A stretch of 34,325 nucleotides of DNA from Deltaproteobacteria bacterium (GCA_021413675.1 JAIOQA010000083.1:1-34325), one strand, 5' to 3'. Counted from the stretch's first letter, positions 24,155-27,561 are shown. Numbers and translations are program-made. Notes: generated by a model not told the origin, from the sequence alone.

Positions 24155-25642
24155 GTGACCGCCGTGCCCCGCCCTCCGCGCCGGACCACCGCGCGCCGGA
24201 TCGTGGCGTCGTTCGCGGCGGTGCTGGCGCTGTTCGCGCTGGCGCTGGTGGTGATCCTGGTCGCGCTCAGCCGGATCGGCGCCGCCGATCGCGAGGTCGT
24301 GCGGCTCGATCACGCCAAGCACGCCGGCCACCAGGTCGCGGCGCTGGCGCGCGAGCAGTACATCCACCAGGCCCACACGCTGCTCGAGTGGAACCACTCC
24401 CACCTCGAGCACTACACCGCGGTCGCGACCCGGGCGCGCGAGGCCGCGGATCACCTGCGCGCGCTGGTCGACACCGACGACGAGCGCGCCCAGGCCGACA
24501 GGATCACGGCGCTGGTCGCCGACAGCGACCGGGTCTTCCGCGCCCAGGTCGTGCCGGCGGTCGACCACGGCGACCGCAGCGCGGCGCCGCAGCTCGGGCT
24601 GACGATCGAGGGCGTGGTCGATCGGGTCGTGGCGATCAACGAGGACCTCAACCACGATCTCGAGCGGCGCAGCGAAGCGGCGCACACCGAGGCCGACCGG
24701 ATCCGCGGCCAGGCCCGGCTGTGGGCGGTCGCGTGCTTCGCGCTGGCCATCGCGCTGGCCACCGGCGTCGGCGTGTACCTGATGCGCTCGATCTCGAGGC
24801 CGGTGGCGGCGCTGCGCGCGGGCGCCGAGCGGGTCGGCGCCGGCGATCTGACCGTGCGCATCGGCCTCGCCGGCACCGACGAGCTGGTCGAGCTGGCCGG
24901 CGCGTTCGATCGCATGACCGGCGATCTCGCCGCCCGCCAGGCGGAGCTGCTCGAGGCCCATCGGCTCGCGTCGATCGGCCAGGTCGCCTCCGGCGTGGCC
25001 CACGAGATCAACAACCCGCTCGGCGTGATCCTCGGCTACGTGAAGCTCTTGCGCGCCGATCCCGCGGTCGCCGGCAAGGACGAGCTGTCGATCATCGAAG
25101 ACGAGGTCCGGCAGGCCCAGCGCATCGTCGCGGGCCTGCTCGATCTGGCGCGGCCGGTGCGCCTGACCCGCGCGCCGGTCGAGCTCGGCGAGCTCGTGAA
25201 GGACGCGGTCGCGCGCCTCGGCGAGAGCGGCCGCACCGAGGGTGTGGTGTTCGCGCTCCCCGACCAGGCCGCGATCGAGGTCGAGGCCGACGAGGCCAAG
25301 CTGCGCCAGGCGCTGCTCAACCTGCTGGTCAACGCCGCCGACGCGGCGCGCGATCCGCGCGCGACGGACGCGTCCGTCACCGTGACCTGGCAGCGGGTCG
25401 GCGAGCGCGCGGAGATCGCGGTCGTCGACCGCGGCCCCGGCATCGCGGCCGAGCACCTGCCGCGGCTGTTCGAGCCGTTCTTCTCGACCAAGGCCCAGGG
25501 CCACGGCCTGGGCCTCGCGATCGCGCGCACGATCGCGCGCGCCCACGGCGGCGACATCACGCTCGAATCGAAGGGCGGCGTGCGCGCGGTGCTCGCGATC
25601 GCCGCGGAGCCCCGGTCATCGACTGCCTCGGAGGCGACATGA
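24155..25642 (+). CDS. Membrane sensor histidine kinase (TM - His-rich periplasmic domain - TM - HAMP - HisKA - HATPase_c)
   Basis: It has two TM segments flanking a periplasmic domain rich in His ([27 protein letters not shown]). It has a HAMP domain, an H-box VAHEINNPL and N/G boxes ([27 protein letters not shown]). Confidence 0.85.
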
Positions 25643-27042
25643 TCCGCGCGCGCGTCCTGGTCTGCGACGACAAGGAGAACTTCACCAAGCTGTTCCGGCG
25701 GCTCCTGCCCGAGGACCGGTTCGACGTGACCACCGCGCCCGACGGCGATCGCGCGCTCGCGCTGATCGCCGCGTCGAGCTTCGACGTGATCGTCAGCGAC
25801 ATCCGCATGCCGGGCGCCGACGGCCGCGCGGTGCTGCGCGAGGCCCGCGCGCGCGATCCCGACGCCGAGGTCGTGCTGATGACCGCGTACGCGACGGTGC
25901 CCGACGCGGTCAGCGCGATGCGCGAGGGCGCCTTCGACTACCTCGCCAAGCCGTTCGAGCCCGACGAGGCGCTGCTCGTGGTCGAGCGCGCGCTCGAGCG
26001 CCGCCGGCTGCGCCAGCAGGCCCGCGACCTGCGCCTCGCGCTCGAGGGCATCCACCGGATCGATCACCTGGTGGCCAAGAGCCCGGCGATGACGCCGGTC
26101 CTGACGATGGTGCGCCGGGCGGCGGCGAGTGACGCGACCGTGCTGGTCACCGGCGAGAGCGGCACCGGCAAGGAGGTCGTCGCGCGGGCGATCCACGCCT
26201 CGGGCGCGCGCAGCGCCGGGCGGTTCGTCGCGGTCAACTGCGGCGCGATCCCCGAGGCGCTGATCGAGAGCGAGCTGTTCGGCCACGCCAGGGGCGCGTT
26301 CACCGGCGCGACCGCGGATCACCGCGGCCTGTTCGAGGAGGCCGACCACGGCACCTTGTTCCTCGACGAGCTCGCCGACCTGCCGCTGGCGATGCAGGTC
26401 AAGCTCAACCGCGCGCTGCAGGAGCACGTCATCCGGCCGGTCGGCGGCCAGGGCGAGCGCGCCATCGACGTGCGGGTGATCGCGGCGACCAACGTCGATC
26501 TCAAGGCGCGGATCGCGCTCGGCCAGTTCCGCGAGGACCTCTACTACCGGCTGCACGTGCTGCCGATCCACCTGCCGCCGCTGCGCGAACGCCGCGAGGA
26601 CATCCCGGTGCTGGTCGCGTTCCTGCTCGAGCGCCACGGCACCCGCCGCACGCCCGCGCCCGAGGGCTTCACCGCCGAGGCGCTGTCGGCGCTGGTCCGC
26701 TACGACTGGCCCGGCAACGTGCGCGAGCTCGAGAACGCGATCGAGCGCGCGCTCGCGGTCAGCGATGCGCCGCGCCTCGAGCTCGAGGCCCTGCCCGACG
26801 AGGTCGCTGCGAGCGTGCGGCCGCGCCTCACGCAGGGCGCCGAGACCACGCTCACGTATCGCGAGGCCGTCGACCTCGCCAACGATCGCGCGTCGCGCGA
26901 GTACCTGATGAACCTGATGCGCGAGCTCAAGGGCAACGTCACCGAGGCAGCGCGCCGCGCGGGCATGGAGCGCGAGAGCCTGCACCGGCTGCTCAAGCGC
27001 TACGGCGTGCGGTCCGAGGACTTCAAGGGGCGGGCCCCGTGA
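25639..27042 (+). CDS. Sigma54-dependent response regulator (NtrC/Fis family: receiver - AAA+ sigma54-activation - Fis HTH)
   Basis: The receiver reads RVLVCDDKENFTKL...DVIVSDIRMPGADG. The AAA+ domain has Walker A GESGTGKE, GAFTGA (the sigma54-contact GAFTGA motif) and Walker B LFLDE. A C-terminal HTH is present. The start overlaps the kinase stop (ATGA). Confidence 0.9.
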   Translation: MIRARVLVCDDKENFTKLFRRLLPEDRFDVTTAPDGDRALALIAASSFDVIVSDIRMPGADGRAVLREARARDPDAEVVLMTAYATVPDAVSAMREGAFDYLAKPFEPDEALLVVERALERRRLRQQARDLRLALEGIHRIDHLVAKSPAMTPVLTMVRRAAASDATVLVTGESGTGKEVVARAIHASGARSAGRFVAVNCGAIPEALIESELFGHARGAFTGATADHRGLFEEADHGTLFLDELADLPLAMQVKLNRALQEHVIRPVGGQGERAIDVRVIAATNVDLKARIALGQFREDLYYRLHVLPIHLPPLRERREDIPVLVAFLLERHGTRRTPAPEGFTAEALSALVRYDWPGNVRELENAIERALAVSDAPRLELEALPDEVAASVRPRLTQGAETTLTYREAVDLANDRASREYLMNLMRELKGNVTEAARRAGMERESLHRLLKRYGVRSEDFKGRAP

Positions 27043-27050
27043 GCGCGAGC

Positions 27051-27075
27051 GTCACCTGTGACCGATGTGGTCACG
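27051..27075. promoter_or_regulatory. Candidate enhancer (UAS) dyad for the NtrC-like activator: GTCACCTGTGACC-GATGT-GGTCACG
   Basis: GTGACC (27058-27063) and GGTCAC (27069-27074) are perfect reverse complements separated by 5 nt. An extra GTCAC half-site lies at 27051-27055. The element sits about 70 nt upstream of the sigma54 -24 element. Confidence 0.4.
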
Positions 27076-27123
27076 GACCCTGCCGATCGCCTGGCGCAAC
27101 GCCGCGAGTTGACGTGCGGCGCG

Positions 27124-27141
27124 CTGGCGCGCAGCGTGCTT
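27124..27141 (+). promoter_or_regulatory. Sigma54 (RpoN) -24/-12 promoter: cTGGCGCgcagcgTGCtt
   Basis: GG at 27126-27127 and GC at 27138-27139 have the canonical 10-nt spacing. There is one mismatch to TGGCACG-N4-TTGC. It lies about 35 nt upstream of the cupredoxin ATG. Confidence 0.5.
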
Positions 27142-27174
27142 TTCGATCGACCACCTGACCGTCCCGGAGTCCGC

Positions 27175-27561
27175 ATGCGCACCTCGTCCCGCTCGCTCCT
27201 CCTCGCCGCCGTCCTCGCGTTCGCCGGCGGCTCCGTCCTCGCCAGGCCCGGCGCCGCGCCGCCGAAGCCCGCCGCGCCGGCGCCCGCCGCGCAGCGCATC
27301 GCCATCGAGGTCACGCGCCAGGGCTTCACGCCCGACCGCATCACCGTGGCCAAGGGGCAGCCGGTCGTGCTCGCGTTCAAGCGCACCACCGACAAGACCT
27401 GCGCCAAGAACGTCGTCGTCGAGCTCGGCGACGGCAAGAAGGTGCAGAAGGACCTGCCGCTCGATCAGACCGTCGAGATCGCCGCGACCTTCGCGAAGGC
27501 GGGGACGCTGAGCTACGCCTGCGGCATGGACATGGTCACCGGCGTGCTCACGGTGCAGTGA
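27175..27561 (+). CDS. Secreted cupredoxin-like domain protein (128 aa)
   Basis: GGAG lies upstream of ATG 27175. The signal peptide reads MRTSSRSLLLAAVLAFAGGSVLA. A cupredoxin-like single domain reads RIAIEVTRQGFTPDRITVAKGQPVVLAFKRTTDKTCAKN...GTLSYACGMDMVTGVLTV, with C/M/H candidate Cu ligands. Confidence 0.75.
   Translation: MRTSSRSLLLAAVLAFAGGSVLARPGAAPPKPAAPAPAAQRIAIEVTRQGFTPDRITVAKGQPVVLAFKRTTDKTCAKNVVVELGDGKKVQKDLPLDQTVEIAATFAKAGTLSYACGMDMVTGVLTVQ

Follow-up and report, generated by a model that had tools for sequence, protein, structure and literature searches.

Layout of the locus and its predicted products

The sequence analysed here, referred to as the window, is a 34,325-nt contig with a G+C content of 72.6%, belonging to a metagenome-assembled genome (MAG) that is labelled "Deltaproteobacteria bacterium" at the NCBI; its source is an uncultured myxobacterium. 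Its right-hand part encodes a sensor histidine kinase and an NtrC-type response regulator, followed by a cupredoxin, a Met/His-rich protein and a CusCBA-type efflux system of the resistance-nodulation-division (RND) class, with 17-bp dyads and sigma-54-type promoter elements lying between the genes (Table 1). To judge from its sequence, this locus is likely to be a copper-responsive (or copper/silver-responsive) two-component regulon that uses sigma-54. The domain architectures, motif positions, conservation and statistics given below were obtained from the window and from comparison with other loci, in particular with eight loci that carry an orthologous kinase or the orphan Met/His protein (L081-L088).

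Table 1. Genes and candidate regulatory elements from the kinase gene to the right-hand end of the window.
Feature	Coordinates	Strand	Basis or remark
Sensor histidine kinase, 495 aa	24155..25642	+	Start GTG 24155; Pfam domains
NtrC-type response regulator / bacterial enhancer-binding protein, 467 aa	25639..27042	+	Pfam domains, motifs
Candidate activator dyad A1, GTGAGCGCGAGCGTCAC	27039..27055	no strand	Overlaps regulator stop codon
Candidate activator dyad A2, GTGACCGATGTGGTCAC	27058..27074	no strand	Perfect; centre 19 bp from A1 centre
Sigma-54-type promoter P1 (predicted), TGGCGC-N5-GTGCT	27125..27140	+	GG 27126-7, GC 27138-9
CupA-like cupredoxin, secreted, 128 aa	27175..27561	+	Cupredoxin_1, PDB alignments
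Met/His-rich probable lipoprotein, 162 aa	27606..28094	+	Composition, two CPMH/CPMMH motifs
CusA-type heavy-metal RND pump, 1077 aa	28120..31353	-	TIGR00914, CusA alignment
CusB-type adaptor, ~685 aa	31340..33397	-	HlyD_D23/CusB matches, YtkA domain
Sigma-54-type promoter P2 (predicted), TGGCGCCGCGGTTGCA	33421..33436	-	16-mer scan; 1 mismatch; faces cusBA
Candidate activator dyad B1, GTCACCCGCAGGATCAC	33534..33550	no strand	Dyad scan
Candidate activator dyad B2, GTAACCGACTCGGTCAC	33553..33569	no strand	19 bp from B1; common to P2 and P3
Sigma-54-type promoter P3 (predicted), GGGCACGTCGCTTGCT	33685..33700	+	16-mer scan; 1 mismatch; faces cusC
CusC-like outer-membrane efflux protein	33745..34325	+	Pfam OEP; ends at window edge

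According to Pfam, the kinase is composed of a first transmembrane segment (TM1), a periplasmic domain (residues ~40-185), a second transmembrane segment (TM2), HAMP, HisKA, containing H283, and HATPase_c. The start of the regulator gene overlaps the kinase stop as ATGA. In the receiver domain of the regulator (REC; PF00072, E 3e-26, residues 6-112), D10/D11, D54, T82 and K104 are in place, D54 being the phospho-acceptor. The sigma-54 interaction domain of the AAA+ type (Sigma54_activat, PF00158, E 4.9e-68) has the Walker A motif GESGTGKE at 172 and GAFTGA at 219, and the C-terminus matches a Fis-type helix-turn-helix (HTH; HTH_8, PF02954) with 22.1 bits, the cut-off being 22. All the sequence features that define NtrC-family enhancer-binding proteins are present, namely the REC Asp, the GAFTGA-bearing AAA+ domain, and an HTH with candidate enhancer sites upstream of promoters. 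An exact database look-up of the regulator protein returned no record. A first-pass annotation of the same DNA had described a His-rich periplasmic sensor, with at least eight His in HxxH/HxH spacing, and an NtrC-type partner; the ~145-residue loop of the kinase was indeed found to hold 12 His in both spacings, and the partner to carry AAA_lid_14 in addition to REC, Sigma54_activat and HTH_8.

Small proteins of ~160-173 amino acids whose C-terminus closely resembles the HTH of the regulator (...MKRESLHRLMRRHHVTADDFR), and which have no AAA+ domain, were observed in L086 (12719-13201, minus strand) and L082 (17109-17630, plus strand). In L086, a tandem dyad pair and a sigma-54-like promoter precede the gene, whose product may act in feedback by competing for the operator. 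In L088, the closest relative, kinase and regulator were called as a single protein of 944 amino acids (1198-4032); this could reflect a genuine fusion, a frameshift or an error of gene calling.

Among the putative target genes, the cupredoxin gene has its ATG at 27175, preceded by GGAG, and its product has a signal-peptide-like N-terminus. The protein matched Cupredoxin_1 (PF13473, E 5.9e-14) and aligned, along its entire cupredoxin domain, with Streptococcus pneumoniae CupA (2MRY/4F2E, E 1.2e-7) and with the CopA N-domain (4F2F), Cys76 and the C116-G-M-D-M (CxMxM) motif being kept; orthologues in L084, L085, L087 and L088 retain the motif. It is predicted from these features to be a periplasmic Cu(I) carrier. 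The second gene of the putative P1 operon encodes the Met/His-rich protein, for which the NCBI calls the 162-residue form and for which GTG 27558 is an alternative start. Only four homologues of this protein were found among 5.8 billion proteins, and searches against Pfam, NCBIfam and PDB gave no match; any role that we assign to it is a guess from its composition.

The pump scored 1148 bits with TIGR00914 (cut-off 701), and 1094 bits with Escherichia coli CusA versus 532 with the Zn pump ZneA. It has Met at all three positions that align with M573, M623 and M672 of CusA, the residues of its three-Met site. The CusB-type adaptor has an N-terminal extension, consisting of a YtkA domain with a Met-rich stretch (YDMPAMGAMAEM) and a CPM motif (WHVFECPMAPGYQGW), which brings it to ~685 amino acids instead of ~400. 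This fusion of YtkA to CusB is shared by L081, L087 and L088. The open frame of cusB continues to 33550, and the stretch beyond 33397 holds a promoter element and dyads; translation probably starts at ATG 33397, downstream of P2. The CusC-like protein, which is cut by the window edge, matched Pfam OEP with 26.2 bits (cut-off 22). The elements by which CusCBA systems are recognised, a three-Met pump of the CusA/CzcA family, a CusB-type adaptor and an OEP, are therefore all found. Together, the CupA-type motif of the cupredoxin and the three-Met site of the pump identify the targets as Cu(I)/Ag(I)-type.

Putative operators and sigma-54-type promoters

The 132-bp spacer in front of the cupredoxin ATG holds dyad A2 and CTGGCGCGCAGCGTGCTT (27124-27141). 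The first-pass annotation had reported, between the regulator stop and the cupredoxin gene, a perfect-arm dyad GTGACC-N5-GGTCAC and a -24/-12 element; both were recovered, the former as GTGACC-GATGT-GGTCAC and the latter as cTGGCGCGCAGCGTGCTt with canonical GG/GC spacing. It had taken them as signs of a sigma-54 circuit placed ahead of copper genes. This part stood, with conserved His residues, a conserved dyad and promoter layout and Cu(I)-type targets in its favour, but the anatomy proved larger than described, comprising tandem dyads, a second dyad pair and three promoters.

Dyads A1 and A2 form a tandem pair. A second tandem pair, B1 and B2 (33534-33569), likewise measures 19 bp from centre to centre and sits between two divergent sigma-54-like elements, P2 on the CusB/CusA side and P3 on the OEP side. 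Both of these elements are one mismatch away from TGGCAC-N5-TTGCW, and B2 is the best-scoring dyad of the window. When transcription starts were predicted at ~12 nt past the GC of the -12 element, they fell at ~27151 (P1), ~33410 (P2) and ~33711 (P3). Relative to these starts, the dyad centres lie at -104/-85 for P1, at -132/-151 for P2 and at -169/-150 for P3. From 23 sites, the consensus of the 17-bp operator was derived as yGTGACCG-N3-CGGTCACr. One regulator probably drives at least three promoters.

The dyad scan, allowing at most two mismatches, gave 15 matches, where 2.3-2.5 were expected. In a comparison with 200 dinucleotide-preserving shuffles of the window, two tandem dyad pairs were observed versus 0.005 expected, and three sigma-54-like sites had a dyad 30-180 bp upstream versus 0.08 expected, a count reached in none of the 200 shuffles. 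The dyad pattern was defined on the window itself, so independent support rests on the related loci and not on these window counts. In nine family loci (184 kb), eight tandem pairs and 18 promoter-plus-dyad associations were found; 77 loci around unrelated HAMP kinases (1.31 Mb) yielded no tandem pair and one association, and the same values, 0 and 1, were obtained for the high-G+C controls (at least 62%, n = 21). The combination of dyad and promoter is far beyond chance.

Two further dyads of the window were set aside. The perfect dyad GTGACCACGCTGGTCAC (12768-12784) lies in a coding region (…AVTTLVTT…) and has neither a partner dyad nor a usable sigma-54-like site, so that it is probably due to chance; the dyad at 26134-26150, with one mismatch, also lies in coding sequence and has no partner dyad or usable sigma-54-like element. 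We also observed a further sigma-54-like 16-mer, CGGCACGCGCGATGCA (27568-27583, plus strand), between the cupredoxin stop at 27561 and the Met/His start at 27606. It is identical in L088 (9963-9978) and could be an internal promoter or merely a conserved spacer.

In seven of the eight related loci (L081, L083, L084, L085, L086, L087 and L088), metal genes are preceded by sigma-54-like sites that have dyads on their upstream side. The units precede genes for CupA-like cupredoxins, OEP-CusB-CusA operons, a Cu P-type ATPase, YHS-like lipoproteins, Met-rich lipoproteins, a multicopper-oxidase operon and PF13442 cytochromes c. In L081, L087 and L085, the first dyad overlaps or abuts the regulator stop (CCGTGAsCGC...), with a -24/-12 element 55-100 bp further on; a sigma-54-like site equivalent to P1 is present in these three loci and in L088. 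The divergent cusBA/OEP arrangement is repeated in L081 and L088, with the OEP at the same place and with sites equivalent to P2. An element nearly identical to P3 was located at 18055 in L081 and at 16011 in L088; B1 is kept in L088 (15880), and B2 in both L081 (17913) and L088 (15899). The conserved blocks in the otherwise diverged DNA of L081 and L088 consist of a dyad and a GGGCACGyszCTTGCT promoter.

These data bear on two other explanations. It is very improbable that the dyads are hairpins, belonging to terminators or repeats, that the -24/-12 matches are chance events at 73% G+C, and that the cupredoxin gene is read through from the kinase-regulator operon or transcribed from an unrecognised sigma-70 or extracytoplasmic function (ECF) promoter. 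The A pair does lie at the very end of the regulator gene, where a terminator is expected, sigma-54-like 16-mers occur in the window at chance frequency, and copA of Myxococcus xanthus also has a promoter of the ECF factor CorE (PMC3707914). Against this, the B pair lies between two divergent gene starts, where nothing terminates; neither dyad pair is followed by a T-run; and the dyad-promoter pairing is essentially absent from shuffles and control loci and forms the conserved part of otherwise diverged intergenic DNA. Scans for sigma-70 promoters and intrinsic terminators found nothing, a result that is uninformative because none is expected at the G+C content of the window.

Slightly less probable still is the idea that the dyads belong to another regulator and that the NtrC-type protein acts elsewhere. 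A candidate is at hand, as an AraC-family gene (23244-24089) lies divergently upstream of the kinase gene, and an unlinked factor is another. However, the dyads accompany the kinase-regulator pair in loci that have no AraC gene, and the HTH of the regulator hardly varies among loci with this dyad. The 6-N5-6 geometry, the tandem arrangement and the location 85-170 bp upstream of a -24/-12 element are, moreover, in the style of enhancer-binding proteins. We retain the NtrC-type regulator as the probable owner of the dyads.

More distant relatives were obtained from a scan of genome contigs, which was swamped by the generic kinase pattern GVAHEINN and yielded three full-length relatives with 33-39% identity (L001-L003; Corallococcus/Myxococcales). 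In one of these, from a Myxococcales MAG (L001, 5038-5440), a distant pair with 38% identity that keeps QYAHQAHT is followed by a small secreted protein with the heavy-metal-binding motifs CPMKC...CPKCGM. The region upstream of the small-protein gene carries GGTCAC-TGT-GTGACCGGGGACGTCAC, which suggests that the wider family may have operators of this type. In Corallococcus interemptor (L002), an ECF sigma factor gene (14037-14612, plus strand) lies 1.2 kb from the distant kinase-regulator relative; the Cys-rich C-terminus of its product (CGACAAHGCLDCSC) is reminiscent of the copper-sensing CorE type. Dyads were not found in the L002 locus.

The periplasmic sensor domain and its signal

The 12 His of the periplasmic loop occupy residues 53, 56, 59, 71, 74, 81, 83, 86, 100, 138, 167 and 177, with the spacings HxxHxxH, HxxH, HxH and HxxH. 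Their conservation among 34 orthologues is uneven. H56, H59 and H74 are present in all 34, H71, H83 and H86 in 33, and H100 in 30, whereas H53 is kept in 21 and H81, H138, H167 and H177 are unconserved. The kinase family is plentiful in MAGs of the Myxococcota (Kofleriaceae, Polyangia and "Myxococcales"), with more than 120 clusters at 56-77% full-length identity. An exhaustive HMMER search with residues 1-215 returned only 189 representatives at 50% identity. The core EQYIHQAHT...SHLxHY, which includes H71, H74, H83 and H86, is kept in representatives down to ~25-30% identity (examined range, 25-45%), and the DHAKHAGH motif is limited to the closer subfamily.

AlphaFold modelled the sensor domain as a four-helix bundle with a mean predicted local distance difference test score (pLDDT) of 93 and a predicted template modelling score (pTM) of 0.83; the pLDDT for the full-length kinase was 87. 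In the arrangement that we drew from the helix boundaries, H71, H74, H83 and H86 would cluster at the membrane-distal tip, and H56, H59 and H100 at one lower level. The residues of the tip cluster are conserved across the whole sensor family, and those of the lower cluster in the subfamily of the window kinase. Fold searches matched the Adeh_2942 sensor (4K0D) and the ligand-binding domains of Tar/Tsr, PcaY and NarQ, with 5-15% identity. None of the listed matches is titled in PDB as a natural metal-sensing domain, and the EQYIHQAHT...SHLxHY motif is specific to the family of the window kinase: the four-helix-bundle fold is common, but the His constellation is family-specific. By sequence, the sensor domain gave nothing meaningful against PDB, and no model covered it in the Pfam copy searched. 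An assignment to CHASE3 was rejected, with a score of 19.6 bits for a cut-off of 28.

With regard to the signal, a site composed of His alone is more characteristic of Cu(II), Zn(II) or Ni(II) than of Cu(I). The same circuit could be governed by a kinase that senses a divalent metal (Zn, Ni or Cd), or envelope stress induced by metals, in the manner of ZraSR, which we consider unlikely. In its favour, the site combines many His with a lack of Met and Cys, a composition suited to Zn(II), Ni(II) or Cu(II), and a gene of the cation diffusion facilitator (CDF) family (Cation_efflux) comes after the regulator in L086. Moreover, ZraSR is the textbook sigma-54 metal system, and it too has divergent promoters (PMC4987338). 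The targets in the window, however, are of the Cu(I)/Ag(I) type, as judged from the CupA motif and from the three-Met pump with its clear preference for CusA over ZneA in score. The neighbours of the orthologous kinase-regulator pairs point in the same direction, since they include Cus-type RND/OEP genes, Cupredoxin_1 proteins, multicopper oxidases, Cu P-type ATPases, CopZ-like HMA proteins, YHS-like proteins and PF13442 cytochromes c. Finally, the equivalog models of ZraSR failed to recognise the pair: the ZraS model NF007688 aligned with the kinase core only, leaving the sensor unaligned, at 151 bits for a cut-off of 479, and NF007689 gave 365 bits for a cut-off of 760. We lean, by a small margin, towards the view that the His site binds copper directly.

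Elsewhere in the window, a large open reading frame (~20200-22762, plus strand) matched Pfam MVP_shoulder (E 5e-25) and Vault_3, and represents a bacterial homologue of the eukaryotic major vault protein.

Proposed circuit and comparison with known systems

In the circuit that we propose, periplasmic copper would bind the conserved His constellation of the four-helix bundle, and the signal would be relayed through TM2 and HAMP, so that the kinase autophosphorylates on H283 and passes the phosphate to D54 of the regulator. The phosphorylated regulator would oligomerise on the tandem 17-bp dyads, whose centres are 19 bp apart, and its GAFTGA-containing AAA+ domain would use ATP to open the closed sigma-54 complexes at P1, P2 and P3. 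Expression of the cupredoxin and of the Met/His-rich lipoprotein would follow from P1, and that of cusBA and cusC from P2 and P3, respectively, which diverge from a shared dyad pair. The net output is expected to be the buffering or hand-off of periplasmic Cu(I), together with export across the outer membrane. The regulatory architecture is the part of this proposal in which we place most confidence, and we regard it as very likely. We infer that the regulator recognises the dyads, that the sensed ligand is copper and is bound by the His residues, and that transcription in vivo makes use of sigma-54.

Several observations weigh against the proposed sigma-54 copper circuit. Taken by itself, the sigma-54 16-mer is not enriched in the window (nine matches with at most two mismatches, versus 8.1 expected), and P1 carries two mismatches to the 16-mer consensus. 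The leader of cusB predicted from P2 is ~13 nt long, with no clear Shine-Dalgarno sequence. The rpoN gene is not on the 34-kb contig. Among the related loci, L082 showed no dyad-promoter pair at the thresholds used, and the CDF gene that follows the regulator in L086 is not accompanied by dyads. Lastly, the coexistence of an all-His site with Cu(I)-type targets makes the sensed species uncertain.

The usual textbook account of how Gram-negative bacteria sense copper and silver is built on CusRS/CopRS, with OmpR-type regulators, and on CueR. For the sigma-54 route to copper, the record consists of one genetic study, in M. xanthus. To this, the window and its relatives add a candidate operator with its geometry, a putative metal site of His residues on a fold modelled with confidence, and a regulon composed of a CupA-like cupredoxin and CusCBA. 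If the proposal is true, the copper regulons of uncultured Myxococcota would become predictable from sequence. It refines a known theme and adds no new principle.

The CusRS, CopRS and SilRS systems have OmpR-type regulators acting at sigma-70 promoters. Like the window system as proposed here, they link a copper/silver signal in the periplasm to efflux of the cusCBA type and to periplasmic copper proteins. The kinase nevertheless failed the CusS/SilS/CopS test, as TIGR01386 gave 93.2 bits for a cut-off of 292.55 and aligned only from residue 178, and its partner is NtrC-type, not OmpR-type. The structure solved for the CusS sensor shows a PDC-like domain of mixed alpha/beta type, whereas the sensor of the window kinase was modelled as an all-helical bundle. 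As a tentative suggestion, and one to which we give somewhat less than even weight, the periplasmic domain could represent an uncharacterised family of direct copper sensors, made up of a four-helix bundle with a membrane-distal tetra-His site, structurally unrelated to CusS/CopS, and paired with a dedicated enhancer-binding regulator of readable operator.

At glnAp2, the NtrC sites are 17-bp tandem dyads of the 6-N5-6 form, TGCACC-N5-GGTGCA, located ~100-150 bp upstream of a -24/-12 promoter. The window dyads share the 17-bp length, the 6-N5-6 form, the tandem arrangement and the placement upstream of -24/-12 elements, but differ in the half-site (GTGACC-N5-GGTCAC), in the 19-bp spacing of the sites and in answering, as proposed, to a metal rather than a nitrogen signal. 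As for the cupredoxin, S. pneumoniae CupA is anchored in the membrane of a Gram-positive cell, on the cytoplasmic side, in contrast to the window protein, which has a cleavable-looking signal peptide, would reside in a Gram-negative periplasm and is encoded beside a Cus pump.

The first-pass annotation had regarded a copper circuit of the sigma-54/NtrC type as unusual, which was overstated, given the precedents of CorSR in M. xanthus (PMC3707914) and of ZraSR for zinc (PMC4987338). ZraSR (HydHG) of E. coli and Salmonella is a metal-responsive system with an NtrC-type regulator that depends on sigma-54, acts at divergent promoters of this class and brings about the synthesis of a metal-binding protein of the periplasm (PMC4987338). 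It differs from the window system in responding to zinc/lead and envelope stress, and in having as its target the chaperone ZraP and not an efflux pump.

In a full-text survey of the literature on sigma-54, copper and two-component systems, CorSR was the only characterised case found. Genetic data showed that CorSR (MXAN_3419/3418) is needed for the induction of the curA operon by copper (Sanchez-Sutil et al. 2013, PMC3707914). This operon has nine genes, among them those for a His-rich Cupredoxin_1 protein, which comes first, the oxidase CuoA, CorS, CorR, CopA and a PF13442 cytochrome c, and four putative sigma-54 promoters were proposed in silico for the CorSR system (PMC3707914). Neither the article nor its supplements give a binding site for CorR or the sensing residues of CorS (PMC3707914), and, if the tentative suggestion of a family of direct copper sensors is true, that family may supply these missing details of sensor and operator. 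A protein search seeded with the sensor of the Corallococcus kinase returned 13 matches, none of them from Myxococcus.

Sigma-54 wiring of a copper response has thus been shown once before, and the window is, on the sequence data, very probably a well-supported further example and not a new kind of system. Compared by published description, CorSR and the window pair come from the same phylum and have the same Pfam sets (a periplasmic sensor flanked by a signal/TM segment and a TM, HAMP, HisKA and HATPase; REC-Sigma54_activat-HTH_8). Both have a Cupredoxin_1 gene behind a putative sigma-54 promoter, which in the window is the predicted P1, and the multicopper oxidase, CopA and PF13442 cytochrome c found in the related loci match the classes of curA genes. 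They differ in their genetic setting: CorSR sits inside its own nine-gene operon, with control of a Cus RND pump unreported, whereas the regulator gene of the window ends at its own putative operator and its predicted regulon adds cusCBA, expressed from divergent promoters.

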